In this document: positions 30,637 to 59,764 of the stretch, one piece after another
Position numbering within the stretch: the stretch's first letter is position 1
Layout: each line of letters starts with the position of its first letter
Assembly: GCA_963555825.3 (NCBI GenBank)
Contig: CAUVXB020000002.1
Coordinates: 3,200,001 to 3,264,000, forward strand
Direction: 5' to 3'
Source of the DNA: Alphaproteobacteria bacterium
GTDB lineage: Bacteria > Pseudomonadota > Alphaproteobacteria > JAAXGF01
DNA length: 64,000 nt
Translations under genes and position numbers: made by a program
Notes under the pieces: generated by a model
What the model was told of the DNA's origin: nothing
Seen by the model: the letters and a program-made list of their open reading frames with translations, nothing else
Database searches by the model: none

Positions 30637-30804
30637 TAATACGACGTAATTCAATTCCTCGACGTGCAATTTATGTTGCCTCTGTTCCGGTTCGCATTTT
30701 CCCCGGTAAGCGTTCGTTCAGGCCGTGGAATGGGTCCCGTCAAGCGCATCTCCCACGTTGAGGCGAGGCCCCACAAGGTGCTGTCTTTCTGCTGGTAACG
30801 CGAT

Positions 30805-33468
30805 TTGCCATGCGCTATCGTCGTGCGCATGGTGGTTCTGGACGAGGATTTTGGCACCAACCTGACGCTGGTCGAGGGTAATGGCGGGGTCCGGTTGTCC
30901 CCCGTGTCGGTGCCGGAGCACGCGCCGCGCGACTGGCGGTCACAGTGTGAGCGGGAACGGGCGCGGGCGGACGCGGCCGAAGCGCGCGCGGAAGAGCTGC
31001 GCTGGGCGGAAGTGGCCGCCCGCAGCGATGGCGGTTCGTGGAAGTCTCGGTTCAAGGCCTGCCGGCGCAGGCTGAGTGAGGCCGTCGAAGAGACGAAGGA
31101 AGCCCGCCGCACGGCAAGGGACGTGCCGTCCTTGCAGGCGGAAGTGGCGCGCCTGGAGACGCTCCTTTCTGAAGCCGGCATCGCGTCGGCCTTCGATACG
31201 GCCGGGGCGCTGCGCAAGGAGAACGCCCGGCTGCGCAAGGCCCTGGCGGCATCGAAGGCCCGTGAGGGCGCGACCGGGCCGTGGCCCGCTCCGCCCCGGC
31301 GGCGCACCGTCCTGGAGCCTTCCCCGGACCAGAAGGAGACCGTCAGGTCGCTTCGCACGGAACTCCGCCGGCTCGACAAGGAGGTGGTCCGGCGGGACAA
31401 GGAGAACGCCCGGCTGAACACGCGCCTCGACCAGGAGAAGGAGAGGACGGAGCGCATCAGGGAGACCGCGAAGAAGCTGTCCAGCGAGTCCCTTCGGCTC
31501 CACCGGGAGGTGAGGATACTGGGCGACGCCGAGGCCCGCGCCCGGTCGCTGTCCGACGAGGTTTTCTGGCTGCGCCATGCCCTGGAGGTGTCCAAAGCCG
31601 GTAAGGAGAAGTTGAAGGCCCGGCTCGCCAAGCTTCGGGCGGCCGGGGCGACGCTGTCGAAGCTGCCGTCCGACGAGGCTGCTCAACTGCGCGCGGCGTT
31701 GAGGCGATCGCGGCGCCAGAAGACGACGATCGAGGCGCTGCGCAAGGGCAACGCCCGTCTGCGCAGGACCATGCGGAAGTTGGAGACCCGGAAAGCGGCG
31801 CTGGCGGTTCAGCCTGCCAAGCTTCGCGCGATCAGGAAGGCACTCGAGTCCGAGCTTGCCGGGCTTCGGGCGGTCAGGAAGACGTTGTCGAAGTCGCTGT
31901 CCGTTGCAGACGCCGATCTCCGCAGGGCTCTGCGAAGGTCGCGGCGCCAGAAGGCTACGATCAAGTCGCTGTCCCGGGAGAACGCCCGCCTGCGCAAGGG
32001 CGCGAAGACGTCGCGGAACCGGATCGAGACGCTGGAAGTCCAGCTTGAGAGGCTTCGTGCGACCGGGGCGGTGCTGTCGAGGGCGCTCTACGGCCGCAAG
32101 AGCGAGCAGCAGGACAAGCCGGGCTCGGAACACAAGCGCGGCCAGCAGCGCGGCGCGCCCGGCCACGGCCGCACCCAGCGGCCCGGGCTCGATGAGCGCA
32201 CCGAAGAGCACAACCCGCCGCCGGATGCGTGCGTCTGCGGCCGGTGCGGGCAGCCCTATGCGCCGAACGGCGCCGAGGAATCCACCCTCGTCGAGATCGA
32301 GGTCAAGGCCTACAAGCGCGTGATCCGCCGTCCGCGCTGGCGCCGGACCTGCGAGTGCGCGTCGTCGCCCATGGAAGTGTCGGCGCCCCCGGTGCCGCGG
32401 CTGTTCCCCAGGACGCTCTACGGGACCAGCTTCTGGGCACGCTTCCTGTTCGAGCACTGTGCCTGCTTCCGCCCCGTGCACCGCGTTGCCGCGTGGATGT
32501 CCGCCCAAGGGCTGACGGTCTCGCCGGGGACGCTGGCCGACAGCCTGAAGCGGTTCGTGCCGCTGCTCGAGCCGCTGGCCGAGGCGATCCTTGCGCACCA
32601 GAACAAGGCGGCGCTGCGCCATGCCGACGAGACCAGCTGGCGCGTCCAGGAACTTCGCGGGGAAGACCGCTCGAGCCGCGCCTGGCTGTGGGTCTCGGTC
32701 AGCAATGACGCGGTCTCTTTCCATATCGACCCCTCGCGCAGCGCCGAGGCGGCGCAGAAGCTGTTCGGCGACGCTCTCCTCGACACGGTCATCGTCTGCG
32801 ATCGCTATAGCGCCTACAAGCGACTCGCTCGCCTTCGCGAGGGCAAAGTGACCCTTGCATTCTGTTGGTCCCATATGCGCCGCGATTTTGTCGAGTGCGC
32901 GGCCGGCCAGGTGAGACTGACGGACTGGTGCCAGGGATGGATCGAGCGGATCGCGTCGGTCTACCGCCTGAACGAGGCGAGGTTGGCTCATTACGACCCC
33001 GTGATCAAGCGCCAGACGCCGGCGTTCGACGCGGCGCAGGGCGCGTTGAAGGCGGCGCTCGACGGCCTGTTCGCGGAGGCCGCCCGGGAGTTGGTCGGCC
33101 TGCCGGACCAGGCGCGCCAGGGCAGGGCGCTGCGCTCGCTGCTGAACCATCGCGAAGGGCTGAGCGTGTTCGTCGACCGCCCGCAGGTGCCTCTGGATAA
33201 CAATCGCGCCGAAAGATTGTTACGAGGTCCGGCCATAGGGCGACGGCTGTCGTTCGGTTCCGACAGCGAGGACGGCGCCAGGTTCACGGCGATCATGTAC
33301 TCGGTGGTGGGCACGCTCTCGATGAATGGCATCGACATCCTGAGCTGGCTGGACACGTGGCTCGCAGCGTGCGCGGAGAACGATCGCAAACCACCGGACG
33401 ACCTGTCGCCGTGGCTGCCATGGTCGATGAGCGAGGAGCGCAGGCGCGAACTCATGGCGCCGGCGTGA
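30805..33468 (+). CDS. IS66-family transposase (TnpC-like) with ~430-aa repetitive coiled-coil N-terminal extension
   Basis: LYGRKSE, CVCGRCG, HADETSW, CDRYSAY, CWSHMRR, DNNRAERLLR; start uncertain. Confidence 0.88.
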   Translation: MPCAIVVRMVVLDEDFGTNLTLVEGNGGVRLSPVSVPEHAPRDWRSQCERERARADAAEARAEELRWAEVAARSDGGSWKSRFKACRRRLSEAVEETKEARRTARDVPSLQAEVARLETLLSEAGIASAFDTAGALRKENARLRKALAASKAREGATGPWPAPPRRRTVLEPSPDQKETVRSLRTELRRLDKEVVRRDKENARLNTRLDQEKERTERIRETAKKLSSESLRLHREVRILGDAEARARSLSDEVFWLRHALEVSKAGKEKLKARLAKLRAAGATLSKLPSDEAAQLRAALRRSRRQKTTIEALRKGNARLRRTMRKLETRKAALAVQPAKLRAIRKALESELAGLRAVRKTLSKSLSVADADLRRALRRSRRQKATIKSLSRENARLRKGAKTSRNRIETLEVQLERLRATGAVLSRALYGRKSEQQDKPGSEHKRGQQRGAPGHGRTQRPGLDERTEEHNPPPDACVCGRCGQPYAPNGAEESTLVEIEVKAYKRVIRRPRWRRTCECASSPMEVSAPPVPRLFPRTLYGTSFWARFLFEHCACFRPVHRVAAWMSAQGLTVSPGTLADSLKRFVPLLEPLAEAILAHQNKAALRHADETSWRVQELRGEDRSSRAWLWVSVSNDAVSFHIDPSRSAEAAQKLFGDALLDTVIVCDRYSAYKRLARLREGKVTLAFCWSHMRRDFVECAAGQVRLTDWCQGWIERIASVYRLNEARLAHYDPVIKRQTPAFDAAQGALKAALDGLFAEAARELVGLPDQARQGRALRSLLNHREGLSVFVDRPQVPLDNNRAERLLRGPAIGRRLSFGSDSEDGARFTAIMYSVVGTLSMNGIDILSWLDTWLAACAENDRKPPDDLSPWLPWSMSEERRRELMAPA

Positions 33469-34346
33469 CCGGCGCGATCGAGTGCCGTTATTACGGCCGC
33501 GACTTCACCGCCGGGGAAATGGCGCTGCTGCGCGCGCTGATCGCCGGGCCGCCGCCGTTGAACCGCCATATGCTGTCGAAGGAGTTCTGCCGGCGCATCG
33601 GCTGGTTCAAGCCCGACGGCGGCCTCAAGGACATGATGGCCAGGGTCGCCATGCTGGCCATGCACAGGGACGGCCTGATCGCCCTGCCGGCGCCGCAGGG
33701 ACGGCAGAACCGGCCCGGGCCGATCGTCTTCGGGCCGGACACCGAAGCGCCGCTGTTCCCGGCCCCGACGACCCTCGACAAGGTCCGTCCGCTCGACCTG
33801 CGCCCCGTCGTGCGCGGCACCCGGGAGAGCAAGCTCTGGAACGAGTTCGTCGCCCGCTACCACTATCTCGGATACAAGACCCTGGTCGGCGCCCAGATGC
33901 GCTACGCCGTCCACGACCGCGACGGCTGGCCGCTCGCCATGCTCGGCTTCTCCACCGCCGCGTGGAAGCTCGCCCCGCGCGACAACTTCATCGGATGGAC
34001 ACGGCAACTGCGCGAGAAGAACCTTCCCTTCGTGGTCGACAACCCGAGATTCCTGATCCTGCCCTGGATCAATATCCCCAACCTGGGTTCGCACATCCTG
34101 GCCATCATCCGCCGGCGCCTGCCCGATGACTGGACCGAGCGCTACAACACCACGCCCGTGCTCATCGAGACCTTCGTCGAGACCCCGCGCTACACCGGCG
34201 CCGTTTACAGGGCCTCCGGCTGGACCCGCGTCGGGACCACCCAGGGGCGCGGGCGCTACGACCGGGACAGGCAGTCCGACAAGCCTAAAAAGGATGTCTG
34301 GCTCCGGCCCCTGCGACGGGATTGGAAACGCACCCTCAATCGCTAA
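33465..34346 (+). CDS. DUF4338 / Druantia DruA-like protein
   Basis: RYYGRDFT, WNEFVARYHYLGY, AAWKLAPRDNFIGW, RFLILPW, LIETFVE, YRASGW; GTGA overlap with the transposase stop. Confidence 0.82.
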   Translation: MTGAIECRYYGRDFTAGEMALLRALIAGPPPLNRHMLSKEFCRRIGWFKPDGGLKDMMARVAMLAMHRDGLIALPAPQGRQNRPGPIVFGPDTEAPLFPAPTTLDKVRPLDLRPVVRGTRESKLWNEFVARYHYLGYKTLVGAQMRYAVHDRDGWPLAMLGFSTAAWKLAPRDNFIGWTRQLREKNLPFVVDNPRFLILPWINIPNLGSHILAIIRRRLPDDWTERYNTTPVLIETFVETPRYTGAVYRASGWTRVGTTQGRGRYDRDRQSDKPKKDVWLRPLRRDWKRTLNR

Positions 34347-34412
34347 AATCGGCCGGGGCGAATGGAAACGCCCGCGCTGATTCCACGGCCTGAACGAACG
34401 CTTACTCGAACG

Positions 34413-34760
34413 GTAAGCGTTCGTTCAGGCCGTGGAATGGGTCCCGTCAAGCGCATCTCCCACGTTGAGGCGAGGCCCCACAAGGTGCTGTCTTTCTGCT
34501 GGTAACGCGATTTGCCATGCGCTATCGTCGTGCGCATGGTGGTTCTGGACGAGGATTTTGGCACCAACCTGACGCTGGTCGAGGGTAATGGCGGGGTCCG
34601 GTTGTCCCCCGTGTCGGTGCCGGAGCACGCGCCGCGCGACTGGCGGTCACAGTGTGAGCGGGAACGGGCGCGGGCGGACGCGGCCGAAGCGCGCGCGGAA
34701 GAGCTGCGCTGGGCGGAAGTGGCCGCCCGCAGCGATGGCGGTTCGTGGAAGTCTCGGTTC
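34413..34760 (+). mobile_element. Truncated second copy (left ~350 bp) of the IS66-like element
   Basis: Matches 30706-31053; starts 7 bp after the right TIR and ends at CGGTTC, fused to a CRISPR repeat. Confidence 0.9.
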
Positions 34761-36266
34761 CCCGCGCGTGCGGGGAACAGATCGGTCGGTTGGTGAAAAG
34801 TCGTCTAAACAACGGTTCATCCCCGCGCGTGCGGGGAACAGGCTCAGTGTCGCTCACGCCATGAGTTGCCCACCGGTTCATCCCCGCGCGTGCGGGGAAC
34901 AGCAGCACCAGGGCGATTACGGCAACTTCATCGGCGGTTCATCCCCGCGCGTGCGGGGAACAGACCTCAACGATTGTTGCAACCTGAATGAGATACGGTT
35001 CATCGCCGCGCTAAGAACGGTTCATCCCCGCGCGTGCGGGGAACAGACGATCCGCCGTCACAACGATACGGTTGACTACGGTTCATCCCCGCGCGTGCGG
35101 GGAACAGCTGATGCGGGAACTGGTCGTCGCGCGTCAGGACGGTTCATCCCCGCGCGTGCGGGGAACAGCTCACCCGTCATGGTGTCGCCAGACACGTTTA
35201 CGGTTCATCCCCGCGCGTGCGGGGAACAGGGATGAAGCGGCCGGCGGACTTGGTCATGCGGCGGTTCATCCCCGCGCGTGCGGGGAACAGATCGAGGTGG
35301 CCGCCGTGGATCGCGGCGAACGCGGTTCATCCCCGCGCGTGCGGGGAACAGCTTGGCGATGAAACGCCAGAACTGGTTGGCGCCGGTTCATCCCCGCGCG
35401 TGCGGGGAACAGCGACTTGCCCATTTCTACATCCCCCCGCCAGCCGGTTCATCCCCGCGCGTGCGGGGAACAGTCGACCGGATCGGGCGGTTCTGGAGCC
35501 GACGACGGTTCATCCCCGCGCGTGCGGGGAACAGATCTCAGCTGTATCTTCGGGGTTCTCCTCCACCGGTTCATCCCCGCGCGTGCGGGGAACAGCTTAG
35601 ATCCCGCAATTTGATATATCCTACAATCGGTTCATCCCCGCGCGTGCGGGGAACAGTCAAGTACTTAAACACCGGGTCCGAACAAGACCGGTTCATCCCC
35701 GCGCGTGCGGGGAACAGATTGACCTTCGGGTGCAGGACAGGGTCGACGCCGGTTCATCCCCGCGCGTGCGGGGAACAGGCAAGCCCGTATCGCTCCGGCA
35801 CGCTGGTCTACGGTTCATCCCCGCGCGTGCGGGGAACAGGCAACGTGGGACGATATCGCCAACACATACGACGGTTCATCCCCGCGCGTGCGGGGAACAG
35901 ATCGTCACCGTAACGTCAGTCGTCAAGTCGGTCGGTTCATCCCCGCGCGTGCGGGGAACAGGTGTCGGCCAGCGCCTCGCCGGGAAGCGGCACCGGTTCA
36001 TCCCCGCGCGTGCGGGGAACAGTAATCGATGATGTCGCCCAGCCCGCTATCGTCCGGTTCATCCCCGCGCGTGCGGGGAACAGCGCTCCGTTGACCAGCC
36101 CGAAGACCGGGCAGGCGGTTCATCCCCGCGCGTGCGGGGAACAGACTATGGCGATTTCATCGGCTACGATGATTACCGGTTCATCCCCGCGCGTGCGGGG
36201 AACAGGCGGCGACCGCCGTTTTCCCGGATCCGGTGGGCGGTTCATCCCCGCGCGTGCGGGGAACAG
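34755..36266 (-). CRISPR. Type I-E-like CRISPR array: 24 intact 29-bp repeats + 2 damaged; 24 spacers of 32 nt + 1 truncated
   Basis: Repeat CGGTTCATCCCCGCGCGTGCGGGGAACAG with 61-bp period; reverse complement CTGTTCCCCGCACGCGCGGGGATGAACCG resembles E. coli I-E; no cas genes in window. Confidence 0.98.
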
Positions 36267-37770
36267 TCTGCGCCGCCTCGCCAAACGCCGGGGCATCCTG
36301 CTCGGCCAGTGGGGCGCGGGCCGCAACGCCAAGCTGATCGGCTGGTCCCTGGAAGGCTCCGCCATCACCGTGGCCCCGCCCCGCGTCGGCAAGGGCGCTC
36401 TCATCGCCCTTAACCTGCTGTCGCCCGGCGACCGGGGGTTCCAGGGATCGACGGTCACTATTGACCCGCGCGGCGAGCTCTGGTGTATCGCCGCCCGGCG
36501 CAGGCGCGAGCTGGGCCGCCGGGTTCTGCTGATCGATCCCTTCAGGGTGGTGGCCGAGCACAAGAAGTTCAAGGAAACCCATTTGCCTGACGTTGAAAGC
36601 GCGTCCTACAACCCGCTCGACTTTATTCGAGACGATGAAAGCCTCGCCGTGCGCGACATCAACGTGCTGCTCGATGCCCTGCTCACGCCGCCGCGCCCGG
36701 ACGCGCATAACAGCGGCCGGCATTTCTACGAATCCGCCCGCGCGATCATCGCCGGTTACATGGCATGGGTTCGTTTCCAGGAACCGGCCGAGAGGCAAAA
36801 CCTGTCCACTCTTTACGAGTTGCTCTCGATGCCACCGAAGGAAAGGGATGATTTTGCCGAGGGGGTGGCCTCAATGGACCGCTTTGCCGGCGGGCTCACC
36901 CATATCGCGGTTGAGCGCCAGGCCCAGGTCGGCGATGAGGAAGGCGGCAGCAATTTCATGACCATCGCCAACCAGCTCGCCTTCCTGAACTACCCTGAAT
37001 TGCTCGCCCATACGCAAACCTCCAGCTTCGATCCCTTGGATCTGGCGGAGGGCGATACCGACCTCTTCGTCGTTGCGCCGGAAGAGACCATCGAGCACGT
37101 CAAGGGCTGGCTGCGCCTGTGGGTCGCCATCCCCAACGCCGTCGCCGGTATCAAACCGCTTGAGCGTGATCTTCTTATCGTCATCGACGAGATGCCGCGG
37201 CTTGGTTACCTCAAGCCGGTCATGGACGGCTACACCATGGCCGCCGGCAAGGGCGTCCACTTCTGGTGCTTCGCCCAGTCGATCTCGGCGCTCGATTCGA
37301 CCTGGGGCAAGGAGCACCGCAAAACGCTCCTGCATCTGGCCGAACTGGTCCAGATCCTGGGCTTCCCGCGCACCGACGCCGAGGGCGCGGAGGAACTCTC
37401 CAGGGCCATCGGCACCGCCACTTTCGAGGCCAGGACCGAGAACCGCTCCGGCACCATCGCCGAGAACCGCATCGTCACCGCCAACACGCAATGGCAGGCC
37501 GGCGAATCCCGCGCCCTGGTGCGCGAGCGCCTGATCACCCCCGATGAACTCATGACGCTTGGCCCCGACCACCAATACGTCATCGCCTCGCCCAAGGACA
37601 TGCCGCGCGATGCGCTGCATCTCCATCACGCCCACTACTGGCGCCGTTGGGATTCCCGCGATCTTGCCGATCCCAACCCGTTCGTCATCCGCAAAGAACG
37701 CGCGGAAAAGGCCAACACAAAGCGGGTGTGGCCGCAATTCAAACTGCCCTTTGGAGGAAAAGCGTTATGA
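36267..37770 (+). pseudogene. virD4: VirD4/TraG type IV coupling protein lacking its N-terminus, in frame with the CRISPR array
   Basis: GILLG, Walker A APPRVGKG, IDPRGEL, YNPLDF, Walker B VIDEMPRLG, FAQSISAL, RLITPDE. Confidence 0.8.
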
Positions 37771-38549
37771 CGGAGAAACTTGAACAATTGGCAGGCAATC
37801 GCGATCCTGGGGCCAATGAAGCATTAAGGCCCGCCGGATGGACACGCGCTTCGGCAATTGGCGCTCCGAGAAGCGCGGCGCCCGCCGGGGAAGTCCCGGG
37901 TGAGGATCGCGGGGAGACAGCATCGGAGAGCCTCGTGGCGAACACGGGCGATCCATCTCAGCCAGCCGGAAGTGATGGCGCGAAGGATCTGCCGGGCGGC
38001 GGTACTGGGGGCGACCCCGATCCGGAACGCGTCCCGGCCGATGAAATCGCAACACTTGCAAACGTCCTTGATCTGACGCGCCGCATTTGCGCGCGCCTCG
38101 GCAAGGAACCGGGCGTTAATTTGGTCGAGCTAAGTGGGAAAGTCGACGAGCTTACCCTTGCCATGGAGAAGTTCGCGTCCGGGGCGGAGAAAACCGGAGC
38201 CGCGCTCGATAAGGTGCTGGCTGCGCGGGAAGCCGCAACAGGCGAAACCGCGAAATGTGTCGAGGACAATAATCGGAAAGTCACGGCCGACTTCCACCGC
38301 TGGGCAGACACGCAGCGCCGGTATCGCTTTCGATTGTCGGCGCTCGCGCTGGCCGTCGCCGTACCCGCCTTCTTTATGCTCGGTGTGCTGCTTGAGCAAC
38401 AATTCCAGATCGTGCCGCTCCACGATCCGACCAGCGGCTGGAGCGCCCACATCTGGCAGAACTACGGCCGCACGATCGTCGATTGCGCGGAGGATGCGAG
38501 ACGGACGAACAAGGCGATCGAGTGCAGGTTTCCCGTTCACGCGCCTTGA
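37767..38549 (+). CDS. Hypothetical coiled-coil protein with one C-terminal TM segment, coupled to virD4
   Basis: GGAGG RBS, ATGA overlap, hydrophobic LSALALAVAVPAFFMLGVLL. Confidence 0.6.
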   Translation: MTEKLEQLAGNRDPGANEALRPAGWTRASAIGAPRSAAPAGEVPGEDRGETASESLVANTGDPSQPAGSDGAKDLPGGGTGGDPDPERVPADEIATLANVLDLTRRICARLGKEPGVNLVELSGKVDELTLAMEKFASGAEKTGAALDKVLAAREAATGETAKCVEDNNRKVTADFHRWADTQRRYRFRLSALALAVAVPAFFMLGVLLEQQFQIVPLHDPTSGWSAHIWQNYGRTIVDCAEDARRTNKAIECRFPVHAP

Positions 38550-38654
38550 CGGCCAAGCATAACCGGCCTTTAGCCGGTCCCCTGAACGGCCTCTTTTTCC
38601 CCGTTCACGTTACAAACGCGTTGCCCTGGCAGAGCGGCACGAGTGGTCGCCGAT

Positions 38655-39104
38655 TTACCGGACGGCCGCGGTTTGGGCAACGGTCTCGGGTCCCTCGCCA
38701 CCGAACCGTGTGGCGGCGAAGCCGATGACGAGCCCGGCGATGGCGCCCTCGGCGACAAACCAGAACGGGGAAGACAAGATGCCCTCCGGACCGAACACGG
38801 ACGCAATGGCGTCGGCCAGCGTGTCATAGGCAAAGAACGTCAGCACGAAGTTCATCCATGCCCCCAAAAGGGGTGCCAGAAACTACCACGGCATCGGCAC
38901 TTTCAACATTGGGGGCCGCGTGTAGCCGCCGATCACGCCGATGATCGCGCCCAGCGTCGTGTACCAGAGCAATATTCCCCAGCGCAGCAGGCTGTCATCG
39001 CCGACCGGATAGACAGTGAGGTAGATAAATCCCGCAAGGCCGAGCAGGGCGCCGAGCGTTTTGCCGACGGCGATGCGGGTGTTCAACGAGGGATTGCCGA
39101 ACAT
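38655..39104 (-). pseudogene. Membrane protein split by an in-frame TAG (38883-38885)
   Basis: ORFs 38883-39104 and 38655-38867 are in the same frame: ...PMPW*FLAPLLGAWMNF... Confidence 0.7.
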
Positions 39105-39149
39105 TTGAACCTCCAGGGTTATTGGCGTTGCCGGTCAGGCCGGAAGTAT

Positions 39150-39178
39150 CCGCAATCGGCCGCAATCGGCCGCAATCG
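39150..39178. repeat. 3 x 10-bp tandem repeat CCGCAATCGG
   Basis: Seen directly, upstream of the membrane-protein gene. Confidence 0.8.
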
Positions 39179-39283
39179 ATTGTCCGAAATCGTATTGATG
39201 TTGCGTTCGGTGCAAGAGCCGATGGCTGGCGGTGTGGGCTACGGGAGGCAATAGCCCGCACCTGGAGGGCCGGCGCATGCCGC

Positions 39284-39768
39284 CTAATTGGCGTTGTTAC
39301 GCTTTTGCGGCCCCCGGCGGTGGCGCCACCGGTCACTCATCGACAGCCTGCCGTCGTCGTTGCGGTCCAGCCGCTCGACGATGTTGGCCAACGGCCTGTC
39401 GTACTCCGCGCGCGAGATGACAGCGTTGCCGTCCGTATCCAGCATCTGGAAGGCGCGCACGGTGAGCGGGCGCGTGGTTTCATGCCAGACGCCGGCGAAT
39501 TCATCGAGGCTGAGGTTGCCGTCGCTGTCGCCATCGTGGGCCGCATGACGGTCATCGCGCACCTTGTCGATCTCCGCCTGGCTGAGCTTGCCGTCACCGT
39601 CGGTGTCGATGGAATCGATTATTTCCATCGCCATGAGTGCGAACTGTCCTTTGGCGAAAAAACCCATGCCGCCATGACCGCGTTCCGCGTAGCTCGCGCC
39701 CGCGAGTGCGATGCCGCCGATAGCCGCGGCGATGCCTATTCCGATCAGCCCTTCGTTCTCGTTCTCAT
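39284..39768 (-). pseudogene. Secreted EF-hand calcium-binding protein with a frameshift in the signal peptide
   Basis: DTDGDGKLS, DGDSDGNLSLDEF, DTDGNAVISRAEY, DRNDDGRLS; the AGGAG-linked ATG (39768) reads MRTRTKG* out of frame. Confidence 0.7.
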
Positions 39769-39810
39769 GGATATGCTCCTGCGTCGAATGTCTATGACCC
39801 AAATATAGGC

Positions 39811-41259
39811 GATCGTGTCCCGGCAGGTGGTGTAAGAGCGTTGCGCTCTACGCGGCTCCCGGCGGGTAGGGCCGGGACGTTCAGGCTGCCACGGTGGGCA
39901 GCGTGATGGGGACACCATCGCCCAGCGGAGCGATGGATTCCAGCGTCATGTATCTCCTTGAGACGGCCCACTCGTCGTTCTGCTCGAGAAGGATGGCGCC
40001 GACGAGCCGTGTGATGGCGTCTTCGTTGGGAAAGATGCCGACGACGTTGGTGCGGCGCTTGACCTCGGCATGGAGCCGTTCGATCGGGTTGGTCGAATGC
40101 AACTTCTGGCGGTGCTCCTTGGGGAAGCTCATGTAGGCGAGGACGTCGTGCTCGGCTTCGTCCATCAGGGCGGCGAGCTTGGGGACCTTGGGCCTGAGCT
40201 GGTCGGCGACCTGACGCCACTGGACCTTCGCGCTGTCGGCGTCCTCCTGGGCGAAGGCGGTGGCGACGAAGGCGGAGACGACGCGCCGACCCTGGCGGCC
40301 GGCATGGGCCAGCAGGTTGCGGGCGAAGTGCACGCGGCATCTTTGCCAGGTGGCGCCGAGGATCCGGGTCGCGGCGGCCTTCAGGCCCTTGTGGTCGTCG
40401 GAGATCACCAGCTTCACGCCGCGCAGCCCGCGCCGGGCCAGCGAGCGCAGGAACTCAGTCCAGAAGGTCTCGGCCTCCGACGCGCCGATCGCCATGCCCA
40501 GGACCTCGCGGCGGCCTTGGTCGTTGACGGCCACAGCCACGGTCACCGCGACCGAGACGATGCGTCCGGTCTGGCGCACCTTCACATAAGTCGCATCCAG
40601 CCACAGATAGGGCCAGTCGCCCTCCAGCGGTCGATCAAGGAAGCCGTTGACCTTATCGTCGATCTCGCCGCACAGCCTGGAGACCTGGCTCTTGGAGACG
40701 CCCGACATCCCCATCGCCTGAACCAGATCGTCGACCGAGCGGGTCGACACGCCCTGGATGTAGGCCTCCTGGATCACCGCAGCCAGCGCCTTCTCGGCCA
40801 TCCGCCGCGGCTCCAGGAAGCCGGGGAAGTAGCTCCCCTTCCTCAGCTTCGGGATCTTCAACTCGACCGTGCCGGCCCGGGTCTCCCAGGACCGGTCGCG
40901 GTAGCCGTTGCGGTGGGTGATACGATCCGCCGAGCGCTCGCCGTGAGCGGCGCCGGTCAGGCCCTCGACCTCCAGTGCCATCAGCCGCTCGGCCGTGAAG
41001 CCGATCATCTCGCGAAGCAGATCGGCATCGGAGCTCTTCTCCAAAAGCGCGCGTAGGGTCATCATGTCCTGGGTCATCGTGGTTCTCCTTCGGGTCAGGT
41101 TGGTTCGCACTAGCCCAACCCTAAACCGGAACCGCGATGGCCTCCGCTGTGGATAGCCGGCTTGCCTACGCCAGACTCTCGGCGGTCGCTACGGCAAGCC
41201 GCCTACCCACAGCTACCAGAGGCTCCAACAACTCCTACACCACGTCCTGGGACACGACC
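39811..41259 (-). mobile_element. IS256-family insertion sequence
   Basis: IRs GATCGTGTCCC.../...GGGACACGACC; 8-bp TSD ATATAGGC (39803-39810 and 41260-41267). Confidence 0.95.
39881..41077 (-). CDS. IS256 transposase
   Basis: [36 protein letters not shown]. Confidence 0.95.
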
Positions 41260-41589
41260 ATATAGGCAGGGTTTGCCGCAAAACCATGTGTATCCGCGCT
41301 CTTTGTGCCGCGAGAGTTGGACGATCGGGAGACCGGCAGACTTTGTTACGTTCTTTGCCTGCGTTTGAGCGAGGCGCTCGTTAGCCGTTGGCTATTGAAG
41401 CGTCACCGTACGTTCTCGTGGCCGATGGCCGATGATCACCGGGATATCCGCGAGCCCCTGCGTTCTACCTGAAGAAGCATGATGAGCTGCGCGTCACCAT
41501 GGCGGACAGCAGCGCGTTCGCGCGGCGGATAGGTACAGCGCGACGATGGGTTTCTGCCCGCCGCAGTTTCAATCCCGGAACGGTTCCCC

Positions 41590-42097
41590 TCATAGTGCCG
41601 GAATGCCGGATTTAGCGGCTTCGGCGTGCGGCGTGACCGGTCCAGTATTCGCCGCCGCCAAGTCCCGCCAGTGGGTGGTGTAGCGCGGGGACAGGCGCTC
41701 CTGGCGCATCCGCCACTCCGCAGTTCTGGCCGCGAGACCGAGGCCGATCGAGCCCCGCCCGAACCGCCCGTTGATCCGATCCACCGCCTGCATCAAGCGG
41801 CCGTTCTCCAACGGACCGTCCTCAAACAGCGATCCAACCAGCTCGCCGGCCGGCGACAGGTCAAGCAGCATCACGCCGGCCTTGCGGTAGGCAAAGCCCT
41901 CGCGCCAGAGGCGCTCGAATATTCGCAACGCTGCCACGACGATAACGCGGCTGTCGGCGGTTGGCGTCAGGAACGCTGCCGATGCGGCGGTCGTATATTG
42001 CGGGGCGGCGGTATCGAAACTGTTGGTCGCGATGGATACCTGCAGATTGCCGCAGACCTGATCGGAACGGCGGATTTTCTCCGCCGTCCTTTCCGCG
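41590..42097 (-). pseudogene. umuC: C-terminal remnant of a UmuC-like Y-family DNA polymerase, cut by IS21
   Basis: YRKAGVMLLDL, LMQAVDRINGRFGRG, WRMRQERLSPRYTT.W. Confidence 0.85.
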
Positions 42098-42288
42098 TGT
42101 CAATGGCGGAGCAAAAAGGGACCACCTCGGCGGTGTAAGAAGGGACCGCTTGGCGGCTGCGGGCTTGTCCCCGTAGTCCACGGGAGGGCCCCGCGCGCGA
42201 CGCGGCGTGCCCTCAACAGGCTGACGCGGCGGCGCGCGCGGGAGGGACCTGTGGGCCCACGGGGTCAAGCGTGGGCTGGGTGGTCGGT

Positions 42289-43053
42289 TCAGTTAGCAGT
42301 CGGGGTTTGACGCCTGCGGCTCTGGTTGAGCCTGTAGCTGTCACCGTTCATCTCGAGGATGTTGACGTGGTGGGTGAGGCGATCGAGGAGCGCGCCGGTG
42401 AGGCGCTCGGAGCCGAACACCTCGGTCCATTCGTCGAAGGGCAGATTGGTGGTGACCAGGGTCGAGCCCCGCTCGTAGCGTTGGCTGAACACCTCGAACA
42501 ACAGCTCGGCGCCGGTCTTCGACAGCGGCACGAAGCCGAGTTCGTCGACGATCAGAAGCTTGTAGGTGGCGAGCTTCTTCTGGAACCTCAGCAGCTGCTT
42601 GTCATCGCGGGCCTCGATGAGTTCGTGGACCAGCGCGGCGGCGGTGATGAAGCCGACCGAGAGGCCCTTCTGGCAGGCCGCCAGGCCGAGACCGAGGGCG
42701 ATGTGGGTCTTGCCGGTCCCACTGTTGCCGAGCGCGATGAGGTTCTCGCGGCGCTCGATGTACTCGCAGCGGGCCAGCTCCAGGACCAGCGCCTTGTTGA
42801 GCGAGGGGATGACCTTGAAGTCGAAGCTGTCGAGGCTCTTGACCACGGGGAAGCGCGCCGCCTTGATGCGCCGCTCGACCATGCGGCGCTCGCGGTCGAT
42901 CAGCTCGAGCTCGGCGAGTCTCAACAGGTAGCGGACGTGATCGACGCCTTCCGAGGCGCACTGCCGGGCGATCTTGTCGTACTCGCGCAGGAAGGTCGGC
43001 AGCTTCAGCGTCTTGAGGTGGTGGGCGAGCAGCACTTGCGGTGTGTCGGTCAT
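42289..43053 (-). CDS. istB: IS21 helper ATPase
   Basis: GNSGTGKTH, LIVDELG, LLDRLTHH; start MTDTPQ. Confidence 0.95.
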   Translation of the reverse strand: MTDTPQVLLAHHLKTLKLPTFLREYDKIARQCASEGVDHVRYLLRLAELELIDRERRMVERRIKAARFPVVKSLDSFDFKVIPSLNKALVLELARCEYIERRENLIALGNSGTGKTHIALGLGLAACQKGLSVGFITAAALVHELIEARDDKQLLRFQKKLATYKLLIVDELGFVPLSKTGAELLFEVFSQRYERGSTLVTTNLPFDEWTEVFGSERLTGALLDRLTHHVNILEMNGDSYRLNQSRRRQTPTAN

Positions 43054-44549
43054 GCGCCGAGCCCCGACAGCAGGCTCATGTACGACTTGGCGGACGTCAT
43101 CGCGACCCGGGCGCGCGGCAGATACGGATAGACGTCGAGGTTGAGCCTGGGCGGCCGCCGCTCGATGCGGCACAGTACCAGGTGCTTCACCGCATCAAAG
43201 CCGATTGCGCCGAGCCGCAGGGCGTCGCCGACCGCACCCTCGACCTCCTCGAGCCGGAAGGTCTCCAGTAGACGGAGCACCTGGACGTACTCGCGCTTGC
43301 CTGCCTTGCCCATACGAGCTTCGAGGAGCCGCCGCAGAGTGATGAAGGCCTCGGGCAGGTCCCAGCCCGCCAATGGCGCGGCCTGGTCGAGGGCGCCGAT
43401 CTTCTGCTCGATCAAGGGCAGGTAATGCAGCGGGTCGAAGATCAGGTCCTCGCTGTCGTAGGACCGGCGGTGCCGGGCGATCACCTCGGCCCCGCAGCTG
43501 ATCACCACCTCATCGACGTAGCCCCGGATGAGCACCTCACGGTGGCCGTAGGCCACGGGCACGGAATAGTCGTTGCTGCGGTAACGCACCAGCGACAGCG
43601 AACTCGCCCGTCCAGGGCGCTTATCGCAGGCATCATAGGGAGCAGGCGGCAATGGCAAGAGAACTTGACGATCCCGCTCGAGACGCTCGCCGATGGTCTC
43701 CTTGTGGCCCCGCAGCCGCGCCGCCTGGCGCCGGCGGCACTGTTCGGCGAGAGCATCGTTGAGGGCCGCGAAGCTCTCGGCACGCGGGACGGGGACCAGG
43801 AAGTTCCGCCGGATGAAGCCGACCAGTCCCTCGACCTTGCCCTTGTCGTTGCCCTTGCCCGGCCGGCCGAACCTGTCCTCGAACAGATAGTGGGACTGAA
43901 GCTCCGTGAAGACGCGCGTTCGCTGCCGCTTCCCATCGCCCAGGATCCGGGCAACCGCCAGCTTGGTGTTGTCGTACAGGATGGATCGGGGGACGCCGCC
44001 GAAGAAGGCAAACGCCGCGTTGTGGCCATCGCAGAATGCTTCGGTCGTCTCCGCCGGATAGGCCGCAACAAAGCAACCATCACTGTGGGGAAGGTCGAAG
44101 GCAAGGAAGTGGATCTTCCGTAACGCGCCGCCGATCACCGCCATCGCTTCGCCGAAGTCCGCCTGGGCGTGACCGGGGGAATGGGAGAGTGGCACGAACA
44201 CCTCACGCGACCGAAGCCCCTGCTCACGAACGTAGTCCTTCACGATGGTGTAGCCGCCCGTGAAACCGTACTCGTCCCGGAGGCGGTCGAAGATGCGCTT
44301 CGCAGTGTGCCGTTGCTTGCGGTGGCTGGTCCGATCGTCTTCCAAGATCCGATCGATGATTCCCGTGAACGGACCCAGCTTTGGCCGCCTCGGCGGCGCG
44401 CTTCGGCGATACCCTGGCGGCACCGAGAACGACAGCATCTTACGGACCGTCTTGCGGTCTACACCAAACACCCGCGAGGCCTCGCGGGTGCTCATCCCCT
44501 CGACATGACACGCCCGCCGAACCCGTGCGTACAACTCCACCCGATACAT
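43050..44549 (-). CDS. istA: IS21 transposase
   Basis: MYRVELYARVR, AQADFGE, LYDNTK, KGKVEG. Confidence 0.95.
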   Translation of the reverse strand: MYRVELYARVRRACHVEGMSTREASRVFGVDRKTVRKMLSFSVPPGYRRSAPPRRPKLGPFTGIIDRILEDDRTSHRKQRHTAKRIFDRLRDEYGFTGGYTIVKDYVREQGLRSREVFVPLSHSPGHAQADFGEAMAVIGGALRKIHFLAFDLPHSDGCFVAAYPAETTEAFCDGHNAAFAFFGGVPRSILYDNTKLAVARILGDGKRQRTRVFTELQSHYLFEDRFGRPGKGNDKGKVEGLVGFIRRNFLVPVPRAESFAALNDALAEQCRRRQAARLRGHKETIGERLERDRQVLLPLPPAPYDACDKRPGRASSLSLVRYRSNDYSVPVAYGHREVLIRGYVDEVVISCGAEVIARHRRSYDSEDLIFDPLHYLPLIEQKIGALDQAAPLAGWDLPEAFITLRRLLEARMGKAGKREYVQVLRLLETFRLEEVEGAVGDALRLGAIGFDAVKHLVLCRIERRPPRLNLDVYPYLPRARVAMTSAKSYMSLLSGLGA

Positions 44550-44667
44550 CCCCCCCGCCTTCCAGTCAGAGCAACCCTGACAGAAGGCTATACGCGGTCC
44601 CATTTTGGTCCGCCGCAGCCGGATCGACCGGCCGCTTCAGTGGGGGATTATTGCTCTGCCGTTCTCA

Positions 44668-44972: not shown

Positions 44973-47660
44973 CTACCCCATACGGTGTGCGGCCATCAGG
45001 CCTGCAAGCGTTGAACTCTCCTTTATTTCGTCATGTGGCACGAGGGCGTAGACCCAAGGCTTGCCACTATTCTCGGCCGCATGGGCATTTGCGTGACCGA
45101 CCCACTCACCGGCGGCTCGCGCTTTGGCGAGAACGATCTCATTCGTCATCTCATTGCGGGCTTTTACCTCGACGATGAGCTTTTCGGCCTCGGTCTCGAC
45201 AACGAAATCCGGTTCGTACCCCCTGCCCGCCAGATACTCGATCTGGAACTGCTTGGCTCCTGGCTTCATCCATCGCATCACGCTCATTTCGTGGTCAGCA
45301 TCAACGAGGACTGCAAAACGCCGTTCATCATCGGAATCAAATTTCTGGAACGGATAGCAACATTTCTGAAAGCCCATGAAGACGTGCTTCTTCGTATCCC
45401 CAAGAGGCATGATGGGGCGATTGAAATCTTTCACCCTCGTAGGATCGGAGACATTGAAGGCCTGTGGCCGCAGAACCTGAAACCCACGTGAGATGGTGGC
45501 ACGATAATCTGTAGGCGTTTCCCAATAATGCTCCTTCATCTGCTCAAAAATGAACCGGGCCAGTTCCTTTCCATGGACAAGGCACACATTCTCCACATCC
45601 TCCGGCTCTGTAAGGTAAGACCGAATGCGTTCAACCATCTGCCCTGCCAGTTTGTACAGAAAATCCGCCTGGCTATCGTAATCTACCTGATCAAATTCGA
45701 TGAGGTGGCGAACAATATAGTTTTCCACGACTTCCTCGCCTGCTCCCTTGAAGGAACGCGCGAGGAATGTTCGGGCCTCCGTCCGCATATTTGTAATCAT
45801 AATTTCATCGGAAATCGGCTGCTTCGAAATTGCCTCAAGCCCGTCAAGGTCAAATTCCTTGTAGCCGAACGTCACCTCACGGGTCGGGATGACAACGATT
45901 TCCGGAATTTCAATCGTCAGCTCGACAATTTTCGACGTCACGACCTCAACAATCTTGTCGTAATCTGGCTCTTTGGCGACGCCTTCAAGTTCGCCCTGGG
46001 CAGGCTTCAAAGCCTCCTTTACCGCTGCTGCAATTTCCTTGCGGACTTCTGGCTCATTTAACTGCCTAACGCCGCGTTTTAGCTTACGCTCATACTGGTG
46101 CTGGATAAGTTCAATGGTGGTTTGGGCGGCCCGCTGCTCCTGCGGTGTCTCGAACACATACGGCGCTTGCTCGGGGCTGGATAGCCCAGGCATACCGGCA
46201 TCGGCCCCCGTCAATATGCTGTCCAGCACCGTCGGCGATTCTAGTACATTCGCCCCTGCGCCTGATACGTCTGCCTCATCACCAATGGATATTTTCTTGA
46301 TAGCAAAAGGTGAATCATCCTCCTGCGCGCGCCTGATAACTTCATCAAAACGGTCATGGGCAATAACGGTCAGCGTGTCCACGGTTTCAACGCCTGTTCG
46401 CTTTCCGTAAGGTAACCGCAAGCCGCGCCCAAGGGTCTGCTCGGTTAGAATATCGGAGGTCGAAGCGCGAAGTGGTACAATTGTATAAAGGTTGTTGACG
46501 TCCCAACCTTCCTTCAGCTTGTTCACATGAATGACGACATCGGTCTGAGCATCATGTTCCAACGCGACAAGGCGCTGCATGGCTTCATCATTTTCCTCGC
46601 CTTTAAGCGCTGAATGAATTTCGATTACCTTGCCCCTATAGCGACCGCCAAAAAAATCATCGCTTTCTATCTGCTCACGGAGTGCTTTCGCGTGCGTTGT
46701 TTCCTGCGCGACGACGAGCATGAACGGATGGACTTTCGGCTTTCCGCTGTCGCGTGCGTATATATCCAACTCCACCTTCACATGTTCATGATAGTGAATT
46801 CCGTCTTCCAGCTTGATTTGCTCAAGCTGCTCCGGCGTGACCGAAGTTGGATCAAAATTCGCGCGCGTCGCCACTGCCGGTTCTTTGACAAATCCATCCG
46901 CCATGGCATTGCCCAGGCCATAGTCAATGATCACGTTTTTGAATGAAGTGGATTTTGCGCCCACCGTCTTAGGTGTGGCGGTCAATTCTAGCCCTAGTAC
47001 TGGCTTCAGCTCTGCAACCGCCTTCATGCCAGCCTTGGCGCGATATCGGTGCGCCTCATCCATCATCAGGACAAGATCAGGAAGTCCCGCGAGATAATCG
47101 AAATAGGATTCACCGATATATTCGTGCAGCTTTTTGATCCGACCCTTGTCCTTGTTGATCTTATCCACATTGAAAATATTGATTATCGGTGTATTTCCAA
47201 ATAGGTCGCTGCCCTGAACCCCGCGCCCATTGTGCCAATTGTCACCCGTCACCAGAAGCGGTGGGTTCTGGGCAAACTCAGAAATGCCCTTGAACACATA
47301 TTTGGGCGTGCCAGGCGTGAAATCCTGAATCAGCTTGTCATAGATCGTTGTGTTTGGCGCGAGCACAAAGAAATGGCGTGAGCGCTCCGTCAGGAATAAG
47401 AAGGCTGCGAAGGCCCCCATCAAGCGAGTCTTACCGACGCCGGTTGCCAACGCAAAACAGAGTGACGGAAAGTCCCGCTCGAAATCAGTTACGCTTGGGT
47501 AGCTCGCCTGAATGGTCTCTAATGCTGCGGCAAGGTCTGTGTCTTTTGAGAGTTCAATCTTCGAAACGACATCCGCCAATATGGCGAGCGATTGCTCCTG
47601 CGGCGAACGCAGGGAAAGGCGCTGGGTGATCTGGCGCTGTATCCGTTCATCACTCACCAT
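44973..47660 (-). CDS. res: Type III restriction enzyme Res subunit (SF2 helicase + PD-(D/E)xK nuclease)
   Basis: LATGVGKT, DEAH, TAT, KEGWD, QTLGRGLR, YEPDFVVE...VEVK. Confidence 0.9.
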   Translation of the reverse strand: MVSDERIQRQITQRLSLRSPQEQSLAILADVVSKIELSKDTDLAAALETIQASYPSVTDFERDFPSLCFALATGVGKTRLMGAFAAFLFLTERSRHFFVLAPNTTIYDKLIQDFTPGTPKYVFKGISEFAQNPPLLVTGDNWHNGRGVQGSDLFGNTPIINIFNVDKINKDKGRIKKLHEYIGESYFDYLAGLPDLVLMMDEAHRYRAKAGMKAVAELKPVLGLELTATPKTVGAKSTSFKNVIIDYGLGNAMADGFVKEPAVATRANFDPTSVTPEQLEQIKLEDGIHYHEHVKVELDIYARDSGKPKVHPFMLVVAQETTHAKALREQIESDDFFGGRYRGKVIEIHSALKGEENDEAMQRLVALEHDAQTDVVIHVNKLKEGWDVNNLYTIVPLRASTSDILTEQTLGRGLRLPYGKRTGVETVDTLTVIAHDRFDEVIRRAQEDDSPFAIKKISIGDEADVSGAGANVLESPTVLDSILTGADAGMPGLSSPEQAPYVFETPQEQRAAQTTIELIQHQYERKLKRGVRQLNEPEVRKEIAAAVKEALKPAQGELEGVAKEPDYDKIVEVVTSKIVELTIEIPEIVVIPTREVTFGYKEFDLDGLEAISKQPISDEIMITNMRTEARTFLARSFKGAGEEVVENYIVRHLIEFDQVDYDSQADFLYKLAGQMVERIRSYLTEPEDVENVCLVHGKELARFIFEQMKEHYWETPTDYRATISRGFQVLRPQAFNVSDPTRVKDFNRPIMPLGDTKKHVFMGFQKCCYPFQKFDSDDERRFAVLVDADHEMSVMRWMKPGAKQFQIEYLAGRGYEPDFVVETEAEKLIVEVKARNEMTNEIVLAKARAAGEWVGHANAHAAENSGKPWVYALVPHDEIKESSTLAGLMAAHRMG

Positions 47661-47663
47661 GGC

Positions 47664-50700: not shown

Positions 50701-50729
50701 TTGACATCTTTACCCTGACTCCCTATATT
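50701..50729 (+). promoter_or_regulatory. Sigma70-like promoter of the IS1595 transposase
   Basis: TTGACA-17 bp-TATATT; the -35 overlaps the left TIR. Confidence 0.7.
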
Positions 50730-50748
50730 CAAAGTGTCGCAAGGGAGA

Positions 50749-51828: not shown

Positions 51829-51933
51829 GTTGCAGCCCTCCATTCGGCCATTGTGCGCCCGCCCTTGCTGCGATTACAGCCAGAGCAGAGCAGTTGCAGG
51901 TTGTCGCCGGTCCAGACCGTCCCGCTGGCGAAG

Positions 51934-57409: not shown

Positions 57410-57440
57410 CCTCCGATTATGGCTAGCGCGGGTATATTGT

Positions 57441-59761: not shown

Positions 59762-59764
59762 GCC

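Follow-up and report, generated by a model that had tools for sequence, protein, structure and literature searches.

The CRISPR array in the window, the whole 64,000-nucleotide stretch of DNA analysed here, is probably a dead remnant of a type I-E CRISPR-Cas locus that was trimmed at both ends by illegitimate recombination. Its left end is joined to a fragment of an IS66-like insertion sequence and its right end to the coding sequence of a truncated coupling-protein gene, virD4; the leader, the cas genes and the reciprocal recombination products are absent from the genome. The features concerned, with their positions in the window and their strand, are the following.

30705–34405, plus strand: full 3.7-kb IS66-family element with an 887-aa transposase and a DruA/DUF4338-like ORF
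34411–34760, plus strand: partial second IS66-like copy, first 350 bp only, with its inner broken end joined to the array
34755–34780, minus strand: left breakpoint, a 26-nt repeat remnant that shares its first 6 nt (CGGTTC) with the IS
34781–36266, minus strand: CRISPR array body, 24 exact 29-nt repeats with 23 spacers of 32 nt and one 54-nt unit
34996–35017, minus strand: internal damaged unit, a 16-nt partial repeat (34996–35011) with one mismatch, then TAAGAA
36266–36267, no strand: right breakpoint, final base of the leader-proximal repeat joined to virD4 nucleotide 487
36268–37770, plus strand: truncated VirD4/TraG-type coupling-protein gene, first 162 codons missing and the remaining 500 codons intact
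37771–42097, plus strand: rest of the conjugative-element remnant, split by an IS256-like element and ended by a 2.57-kb IS at 42097

The array and its spacers

The 29-nt unit CGGTTCATCCCCGCGCGTGCGGGGAACAG occurs in 24 exact copies between 34813 and 36266 with a 61-nt period, which bears out the number of perfect repeats originally claimed. The array is of type I-E: its repeat, about 29 nt long, folds internally into a stem-loop (7-bp stem, 4-nt loop, −14.3 kcal/mol, z −2.78) and carries the 3′ handle ...GAACCG, and its spacers are 32 nt long. The repeat presumably resembles that of the E. coli type I-E system. The crRNA sense of the array is the minus strand. No Rfam family reached its gathering score in a scan of positions 34000–38000. 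In a genome-wide search for the 28-nt repeat core with at most 3 mismatches, all 24 matches fell within this single array; the further arrays with the same repeat and a leader, for which the original prediction had proposed to search, were not found in the genome, nor was any other CRISPR-like repeat cluster. The candidates for such a cluster proved to be tandem repeats, two of them coding-like by eye, and a 66-bp satellite. Two units of the array are damaged (34755–34780 and 34996–35017), and both lie in its left part, as had been claimed; the terminal one, however, is not a decayed repeat but a second breakpoint with an IS fragment. The internal unit would fit the loss of 39 nt from within the older portion of the array, far from the leader.

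When the 24 spacers were compared with their own genome and its conjugative elements, no match exceeded chance, the best self-matches being 20–25 nt long at 88–91% identity, which is chance level. The whole array matched 114 plasmid records, and the 40 of these that were listed all look like other arrays, most with 70–98% query coverage and 65–69% identity; no convincing spacer match to a plasmid was seen among these 40 of the 114. Phages gave 4 weak records, and the best, a 31-nt match (E 9e-4), overlaps repeat bases and was taken as chance rather than as a protospacer. The junction pattern and the newest spacer had 0 matches in genome and metagenome contig collections.

Leader and cas genes

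The position of the leader was deduced from other genomes. In 14 of the 23 foreign loci with an identical repeat, CTGTTCCCC...GATGAACCG is preceded on its 5′ side by a conserved leader, which takes the form ...GGTAGGTTCTTTGACAT...AG followed by A, T or C before the first repeat, and many of these leaders are preceded by the 3′ end of cas2. This orientation agrees with the minus-strand transcription proposed earlier and places the expected leader of the window to the right of 36266. There, as the original prediction had it, no leader with promoter and integration signals is present, its place being taken by antisense virD4, and a scan of the minus strand from 34300 to 37000 detected no sigma-70-like promoter, either to the right of the array or elsewhere. 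A genome search for the leader core returned only two identical look-alike sites, neither beside a repeat. These two sites, one on each strand of contig C2, lie beside what appears by eye to be the start of a 23S rRNA gene.

The lack of cas genes, first noted for the 64 kb of the window, extends to the whole genome (6.04 Mb, 2 contigs, 99.32% complete), in which the Pfam Cas1 and Cas7e profiles had 0 matches. Furthermore, tblastn with all ORFs of at least 80 aa that lie upstream of the arrays in 10 relatives yielded no Cas match in the genome. These queries included the Pfam-confirmed Cas3, Cse1, Cas7e, Cas5e, Cas6e, Cas1 and Cas2e of locus L021, where they adjoin the identical 29-mer; apart from a sulfatase, an NAD(P)HX dehydratase/epimerase and, from locus L025, two unnamed ORFs that overlap, nothing matched. 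The repeat family is elsewhere served by I-E cas genes, in L021 and on the Roseomonas marmotae plasmid NZ_CP061096.1 (L036). The plasmid array, whose related repeat of 29 nt likewise recurs every 61 nt, lies in the same orientation to its annotated cas2e-cas1e-cas6e-cas5e-cas7e-casB-casA-cas3 genes as that of the window; in contrast to the plasmid, virD4 in the window replaces everything from the leader to cas3. As there is no leader promoter, Cas6e, Cascade or Cas3, the array would yield no working crRNA. One of three options offered earlier, capture of the array by a mobile element for use in trans with Cascade, is left without a partner, since no gene for Cascade, Cas6e or Cas3 was found in the 6.04 Mb, and the flanking element is itself a 5.8-kb remnant.

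The two breakpoints

To the left of the array stands a full IS66-family element with perfect terminal inverted repeats that start GTAAGCG. Its transposase has a long coiled coil as N-terminus and matches Pfam DDE_Tnp_IS66 (E 5.1e-58) and the NCBIfam IS66 transposase (E 1.3e-81), and its second ORF matches DruA (E 3.7e-39). The genome holds 8 full-length copies of this element. The partial copy begins 5 bp past the full one and is identical to its positions 30704–31053 at 350 of 350 bases; beyond 34760 the intact IS reads AAGGCC and the window CCCGCG. The left junction therefore joins the interior of the IS, at its position 350, to the interior of a repeat, and since CGGTTC is common to both and the ATC of the repeat is missing, the microhomology amounts to 2–6 nt.

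On the right, the first base after the last repeat (36267) is VirD4/TraG coding sequence without any gap. That the adjoining VirD4 is headless was confirmed by comparison with three full-length paralogs in the genome, A, B and C (88–94% nucleotide identity), all of which have the 162 missing codons. Like other VirD4/TraG coupling proteins, the 500-aa product matches T4SS-DNA_transf (PF02534, E 1.1e-38), TraG-D_C (PF12696, E 6.2e-21) and TrwB_AAD_bind (PF10412, E 1.4e-11), all above their gathering scores, and has the cytoplasmic NTPase/all-alpha domains of the T4CP family. Unlike the full-length paralogs, it lacks the 162-residue N-terminal hydrophobic region and with it the membrane anchor, the hydrophobic stretches having been identified by visual inspection of the translated paralog A. 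It scored below the curated cut-off of every named NCBIfam TraG/VirD4 family. Across the junction, TCTGCGCC is preceded by ...GAAGGTT in the three intact paralogs and by ...GGAACAG in the window. A genome search for the lost 485-nt 5′ piece of virD4 found only the three intact genes (3 of 3 matches) and no orphan piece, thus no reciprocal product survives.

The truncated gene belongs to a 5.8-kb conjugative-element remnant that is cut by an IS256-like element with a Mutator-family transposase (39811–41259; Pfam Transposase_mut, E 3.4e-123). Positions 36267–39809 are 96.0% identical to C2:617014–613495, and positions 41260–42097 match the sequence that follows in the same paralog locus at 88–93% identity. 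The 2.57-kb IS that ends the remnant has 55 full and 49 partial copies in the genome. To the right of the array the window is crowded with the debris of mobile DNA: besides the conjugative remnant and the IS256-like element, it contains four tyrosine integrases and a low-GC island that is type III R-M-like.

We considered whether either joint could be an assembly chimera. Among the reads and contigs listed from three public runs (X15, X16 and X19), none bridges 36266 with at least 31 bases on each side, and public contigs that start at 36267 carry the 5′ sequence of an intact paralog ahead of it. However, these pieces are short contigs from assembly graphs and end wherever a repeat occurs, which makes bridging impossible in any case. 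One X19 contig crosses the left joint (34744–34839), with only 17 bases on the IS side against the threshold of 31, and the spacers of the array recur with 0–1 differences in runs of three studies. The raw Hi-C run X21, which with these three makes up the four runs compared out of 21 listed, placed 0 reads on the stretch and gives no test of the joints. In addition, the 55 full copies of the 2.57-kb IS are resolved in 2 contigs, implying long reads that should be able to span the 1.5-kb array. An artefact at the array-virD4 or the IS-array joint is very unlikely.

An in-frame fusion of array and virD4, opening at a GTG at 35962, was part of the original prediction. The frame exists (35962–37770) but is no more than expected by chance: across its 1484 codons the plus strand of the array has only 19 stops, and its open runs reach 225, 162, 150, 143 and 117 codons, against 118 codons for the run into virD4. 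As the plus strand is open in all frames with longer runs, the in-frame joint carries no information, and the open frame across the array simply follows from a repeat that is rich in G+C and free of stops. This bears on the suggestion that the fusion is functional, the array being kept for a plasmid-delivered Cascade, or a soluble truncated VirD4 being made from a start within the array and interfering with the three resident conjugative elements. The 500 codons contain no stop or frameshift, and synonymous and non-synonymous changes specific to the truncated gene stand at 20:7, the same ratio as in the intact paralogs A (24:8) and C (17:4). In-frame starts occur within the array, such as the ATG at 36148 after the GGGGAA of a repeat, and a plus-strand promoter-like site at 34322–34349, a consensus match only, points into the array. 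Against a function stand the genome without cas genes and the fact that such open frames arise anywhere on the plus strand of the array, and a recent truncation explains the 20:7 ratio equally well; we therefore regard a functional fusion as most improbable. It speaks against the relic reading that no part looks old: the perfect repeats, the 100% identical IS fragment and the undecayed virD4 indicate that the event was recent or that the fragment is still under selection.

Origin of the junctions and loss of the locus

Deletion, the third of the earlier options, fits best, because the lost 5′ piece of this virD4, the leader and the cas genes occur at no other place in the genome and the left end is an illegitimate junction too. 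According to this model the lineage would once have had an array with leader and cas operon, probably acquired horizontally, and the locus would have had an integrated conjugative element as its neighbour, on the margin of an island of mobile elements; against this stands that no relative preserving such an ancestral arrangement was found. The array may then have been cut on both sides by two illegitimate recombinations with few bases of microhomology. The left event would have put the interior of an IS66-family copy, at its position 350, onto the inside of a repeat with loss of the old array end. The right event would have put the leader-proximal edge of the newest repeat onto virD4 nucleotide 487, deleting the leader, the cas operon of about 9 kb, the intervening DNA and the 5′ part of the conjugative element, and the headless virD4 would be a by-product of this deletion.

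The exact position of the right break invites other explanations. Homology on the repeat side is nil. Read in the sense of transcription, the virD4 side is ...GCGCAGA, and the leaders of relatives end in AGA (8 of 14) or CAGA (L017 and L023), so that the true crossover can lie 0–4 nt into the leader; a lost leader with such an end could have shared 3–4 nt (TCT or TCTG) at the junction. The breakpoint is thus at most 4 nt (0–4) from the old leader-repeat boundary, the site of action of Cas1-Cas2. A random break in the 61-nt unit would fall at the repeat edge with a probability of about 2–8%, which makes chance possible but not comfortable.

Cas1-Cas2 is known to attack the leader-repeat junction, to form half-site products and to catalyse disintegration. 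The adaptation machinery itself might therefore have made the break by nicking this junction: a stalled half-site intermediate, or a replication fork meeting the nick, would give an end at the repeat edge, which the 3–4 nt of microhomology could then join to the virD4 of a broken or invading copy of the conjugative element. The outcome would be the same dead relic, with the junction as a scar of CRISPR adaptation. The junction at the leader-side edge of the newest repeat and the crossover 0–4 nt into a leader of the AGA type agree with this route; against it, ordinary illegitimate recombination hit the array anyway at its left end, and one junction does not separate mechanism from chance. We consider such a break unlikely.

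The second way to a junction exactly at the repeat edge is an exchange between a virD4-derived spacer and its target, by which the element would have integrated into the array; a later deletion, perhaps under selection against self-targeting, would have removed the 5′ virD4 along with the leader, the cas genes and what else there was of the array. The 32 nt at 36267–36298 match the three resident paralogs with 0–1 mismatch, so that an active system with such a spacer would have been autoimmune. This option of the original prediction failed two tests. Positions 36299–36301 read TGC instead of CTT (CTG or GCT after one-base shifts), the type I-E PAM being of the AAG type, which may not be the PAM of this repeat family; and the reciprocal junction, a further repeat and an orphan 5′ virD4 are all absent from the genome. 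Moreover, two events are needed where a deletion needs one, and 0 of the 24 real spacers match the genome or its conjugative elements. Spacer-target recombination is documented for phages (Varble et al. 2019, as cited in PMC8616872) and would set target DNA against a repeat edge as at 36266/36267; in the window there is no PAM at the expected place and no reciprocal junction, and the partner is a conjugative element, not a phage. An exchange of this kind is decidedly unlikely. More broadly, it is rather doubtful that the right junction is a CRISPR scar at all, be it an aberrant Cas1-Cas2 event or nick repaired onto the invading conjugative element or a recombined virD4-derived spacer. Conflict between the array and the resident conjugative elements would then have cost the leader and all cas genes, and the intact truncated VirD4 might be expressed from a start within the array.

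Foreign origin of the array was weighed as well. The identical repeat occurs at 23 loci in unrelated Alphaproteobacteria and other phyla, and 0 of 12 genomes of the family carry it. A 1.5-kb piece of a foreign I-E array, for example from a plasmid, might have been captured as filler during repair of an IS-virD4 break, or have arrived already fused on mobile DNA; the illegitimate junctions at both ends, the matches of the array on 114 plasmid records and the public runs in which the array occurs together with the same repeat joined to other spacers all fit such a history. It requires, however, that a long fragment was captured of which one end coincides exactly with the edge of a repeat, while two independent deletions are undemanding in a genome with more than 100 IS copies, and no donor array was found with the newest spacer, the sole spacer tried. 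An array that was never native is therefore quite unlikely, and the trimmed relic remains the preferred reading.

Orphan arrays are widely interpreted as remnants of decaying systems (PMC9071438 and PMC8616872), and known examples named in PMC8616872 and PMC3784566 are the I-F CRISPR4 of E. coli (Almendros 2016) and the array of Lactobacillus brevis ATCC 367. Like these, the array of the window has a recognisable subtype with no cognate cas genes in the genome; unlike these, it is also without a leader and both its ends are rearrangement breakpoints. Anti-cas spacers were likewise not seen: among the matches listed in the comparison with 24 foreign loci (L013–L036), several of which carry I-E cas genes, none was longer than about 20 nt except for the embedded partial repeat. 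Whole CRISPR-cas loci are lost through large deletions at measurable rates, and of the 16 deletions of Jiang et al. 2013 (PMC3784566), 13 were transposon-mediated and 2 arose by homologous genes. As in those deletions, the entire cas region was lost from an IS-rich genome, but the junctions in the window lie neither at an IS terminus nor in long homology and share 0–6 nt.

The array is probably a case of ordinary genome decay with one curiously exact breakpoint. It offers one closely dissected instance of the death of a CRISPR-Cas locus where IS copies saturate the genome, and the position of either breakpoint is known to the base. The case also urges caution, as a degenerate terminal repeat and an in-frame fusion may be artefacts when an array is read without its paralogs. 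Although a CRISPR-driven cause of CRISPR loss is not demonstrable from a single case, exact breaks at the leader-side repeat edge, if common in orphan arrays, would implicate the adaptation machinery or spacer-target recombination in the loss of CRISPR loci.

Type and orientation of the array

As originally observed, the array comprises 24 exact copies of the 29-nt repeat CGGTTCATCCCCGCGCGTGCGGGGAACAG with a 61-nt period at 34813-36266. The repeats are separated by 23 spacers of 32 nt and a single 54-nt unit, in which a 16-nt partial repeat (34996-35011, 1 mismatch) is followed by TAAGAA. In the genome searched (6,042,393-base assembly, 2 contigs, completeness estimate 99.32%), of which the window covers C2:3200001-3264000, all 24 matches to the 28-nt repeat core with up to 3 mismatches fell inside this array; the suggested search for other arrays with this repeat and a leader thus yielded none. 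No second CRISPR-like array came up in a crude genome-wide scan for 21-mers at regular spacing, and three other 21-mer clusters proved to be tandem repeats (two coding-like by eye) and a 66-bp satellite. As RNA, the minus-strand repeat is predicted to form a stem of 7 bp closed by a 4-nt loop (-14.3 kcal/mol, z -2.78).

The exact 29-mer recurs at 23 loci outside this genome, for the most part in Alphaproteobacteria. A conserved leader (...GGTAGGTTCTTTGACAT...AG[A/T/C]) immediately precedes the first repeat, oriented as CTGTTCCCCGCACGCGCGGGGATGAACCG, in 14 of these loci, ending in AGA (8), AGT (5) or AGC (1); the other nine loci begin inside an array (6), have a degenerate first repeat (1) or carry solo repeats (2). 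Upstream of the leader many loci show an apparent cas2 3' end (judged by eye). In locus L021, Pfam identified the ORFs upstream of the array as Cas3 (C-terminal part), Cse1, Cas7e, Cas5e, Cas6e, Cas1 and Cas2e, and in L036, a Roseomonas marmotae plasmid, read in the window's orientation, minus-strand genes annotated as cas2e through cas3 follow to the right of the array. These leaders and cas genes identify the array as type I-E with crRNA sense on the minus strand and place its expected leader and cas operon right of 36266, in agreement with the original prediction.

The Amaricoccus locus L023 resembles an empty array, its only repeat (2205-2233) being preceded by a leader-like sequence. L014 (4781-4809) and L030, possibly other relics, each carry a lone exact repeat that lacks a leader-like flank. 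In addition, contigs of the public sequencing runs X15, X16 and X19 join the window's repeat to spacers absent from the window (region 34959-36267), hence other identical-repeat arrays co-occur with the organism in those samples.

Search for the leader and cas genes

Leader-like sequence adjoining a repeat was found nowhere in the genome, and no minus-strand promoter was predicted for the array. The Pfam Cas1 and Cas7e models gave no genome match, the latter being a narrow probe (positive in 1 of 14 control genomes). When all ORFs of at least 80 aa upstream of arrays in 10 relatives (the Cas set of L021 among them) were compared with the genome by tblastn, four matched and none was identified as Cas: a sulfatase and an NAD(P)HX dehydratase/epimerase (Pfam), a third without Pfam match, and a fourth of 133 aa overlapping the third, the Pfam scan having covered the first three. 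The lack of cas genes noted for 64 kb therefore extends genome-wide in these searches. Since no leader promoter was predicted and neither Cas6e nor Cascade was found, the array is expected to be inert, and the proposed use in trans would lack a Cascade partner. The leader core of this CRISPR family, GGTNNGTTCTTTGACAT, closely resembles a motif at C2:1711 and around C2:162877 of the same genome, beside an apparent 23S rRNA gene start (by eye), which is probably a coincidence.

Junctions and genomic surroundings

Moving right from ordinary metabolic genes, an IS66-like copy comes first, then a fragment of this element, then the array and a truncated virD4. The surrounding features are:

Left of 29.9 kb: metabolic genes (acyl-CoA dehydrogenase, SDR, ADP-forming acyl-CoA synthetase-like protein, CBS protein)
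30705-34405: IS66-family element, 3.7 kb, 8 full genome copies
39811-41259: IS256-like element, followed by a further 0.8 kb of conjugative element
42097-44667 and 61022-63610: 2.57-kb IS with rve integrase core and Mu-transposase C-terminal domain
44973-54092, minus strand: low-GC island (47-55% GC vs about 65% elsewhere)
54861-60940: four tyrosine-recombinase ORFs (Arm-DNA-binding and Phage_integrase) within 6 kb, two overlapping on the minus strand

The 6.04-Mb genome carries the 2.57-kb IS 55 times in full length and 49 times in part, a very heavy IS load. The island encodes an 895-aa ResIII helicase-nuclease-like protein, an N6/N4 DNA methyltransferase, and helicase C-terminal and SNF2 proteins; it has the look of a defence cluster, type III R-M or related. 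No tRNA genes were found in the 64-kb window. Given the IS copies, conjugative remnant, island and integrases, the array lies at the edge of a mobile-element graveyard.

The plus strand from 36267 encodes a coupling protein of the VirD4/TraG type (PF02534, E 1.1e-38; PF12696, E 6.2e-21; PF10412, E 1.4e-11). Comparison with three full-length paralogs of the genome, 88-94% identical over the common 500 codons, confirmed that the gene is headless and abuts the last repeat: each intact gene has 162 extra upstream codons coding for several hydrophobic stretches, and a 485-nt 5' piece matched the three intact genes only (3/3). The paralogs read ...GAAGGTT|TCTGCGCC and the window ...GGAACAG|TCTGCGCC; identity thus begins at the first base past the repeat, and the repeat side is without homology. 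The following 2 kb are 96% identical to paralog locus A apart from one 23-nt insertion (38564-38586). Identity of 36267-39809 to locus A (C2:613495-617014) is mosaic: 36517-36766 has 33 differences, whereas 37767-38516 and 39017-39809 have 0-1 per 250 nt. This pattern points to gene conversion or recombination among copies of the conjugative element.

The array had also been described as welded in frame to virD4, a feature that lost its significance, as the virD4-frame open run upstream of 36268 (118 codons) is unremarkable. The repeat has no stop in any plus-strand frame, and the array's plus strand carries 19 stops in 1484 codons with open runs of 225, 162, 150, 143, 117 and 115 codons; read from the minus strand, the repeat contains a TGA and open runs reach at most 60 codons.

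The right breakpoint lies 0-4 nt from the repeat edge, roughly a 2-8% outcome for a random cut in a 61-nt unit. A Cas1-Cas2 break at its integration site would be an attractive, if less likely, explanation. Recombination between a virD4-derived spacer and its protospacer would likewise explain the exact edge, and with such a spacer the former system would have been autoimmune, three resident elements being its targets. The type I-E PAM is AAG. However, 36299-36301 reads TGC, not CTT, the reciprocal junction does not survive in the genome and none of the 24 array spacers matches it, which argues against this proposal.

At the left junction, 34411-34760 is identical (350/350) to 30704-31053, the first 350 bp of the IS66-family element, and past CGGTTC the intact element continues AAGGCC and the window CCCGCGCGTGCGGGGAACAG. 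The supposed damaged first repeat at 34755 is therefore IS interior fused to repeat interior; of the damage reported at the left end, where two units (34755 and 34996-35011) were indeed seen, this one is a junction. The repeat's ATC is absent, 2-6 nt are common to both sides, and the array's true old end is lost. The element encodes an 887-aa transposase with a coiled-coil N-terminus of about 450 aa and a DruA/DUF4338-like ORF (Pfam E 3.7e-39). Its second, truncated copy lies head-to-tail with the full one, 5 bp (TCGAA) apart, within 30705-34760, an end-to-start arrangement similar to one near C1:1317492.

Misassembly is a further, unlikely candidate. Contigs of X15, X16 and X19 break at every repeat, none of those listed bridges 36266 (31-base minimum), and public contigs starting at 36267 carry intact-paralog sequence before that base. 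Nevertheless, the two-contig assembly resolves 55 full copies of the 2.57-kb IS, implying reads long enough to span the 1.5-kb array.

Probable origin by two deletions

Both array ends are illegitimate junctions. The original observation is borne out, and its interpretation in part. Of the earlier alternative of deletion or misassembly, the deletion part is favoured: with leader and cas absent, two deletions by illegitimate recombination are the most economical account. With the right one, the leader would have gone together with the cas operon, which spans about 9 kb in L036, and everything up to nt 486 of the virD4 gene in an integrated element nearby. The crossover would share TCT or TCTG with virD4 for a lost leader ending in AGA or CAGA; AGA is the end in 8 of 14 relatives, with CAGA in L017 and L023. 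Less probably, a piece of a foreign array was taken up as filler DNA, in line with the two illegitimate ends and with the wide occurrence of the repeat on plasmids, where 114 records matched the array.

Two points sit less easily with this account. One is the breakpoint so close to the repeat edge; the other is that signs of age are missing: the repeats are perfect, the IS fragment matches the adjacent copy at every base, and the virD4 fragment has no stops or indels across 500 codons. Its lineage-specific synonymous to non-synonymous changes (20:7) stand beside 24:8, 3:0 and 17:4 in the intact paralogs. This intactness fits a recent event and leaves room for selection on the virD4 fragment.

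Published work is in line with this reading: orphan arrays are commonly taken as remnants (PMC9071438, PMC8616872), and CRISPR-cas loci are lost through large deletions at appreciable rates (PMC3784566), there mostly via transposons or long homology, in contrast to the illegitimate recombination at the array's junctions. The array is best read as an orphan array left by decay. Its one curious feature is the right breakpoint at the leader-repeat boundary, which would be of interest only if it recurs in other genomes.
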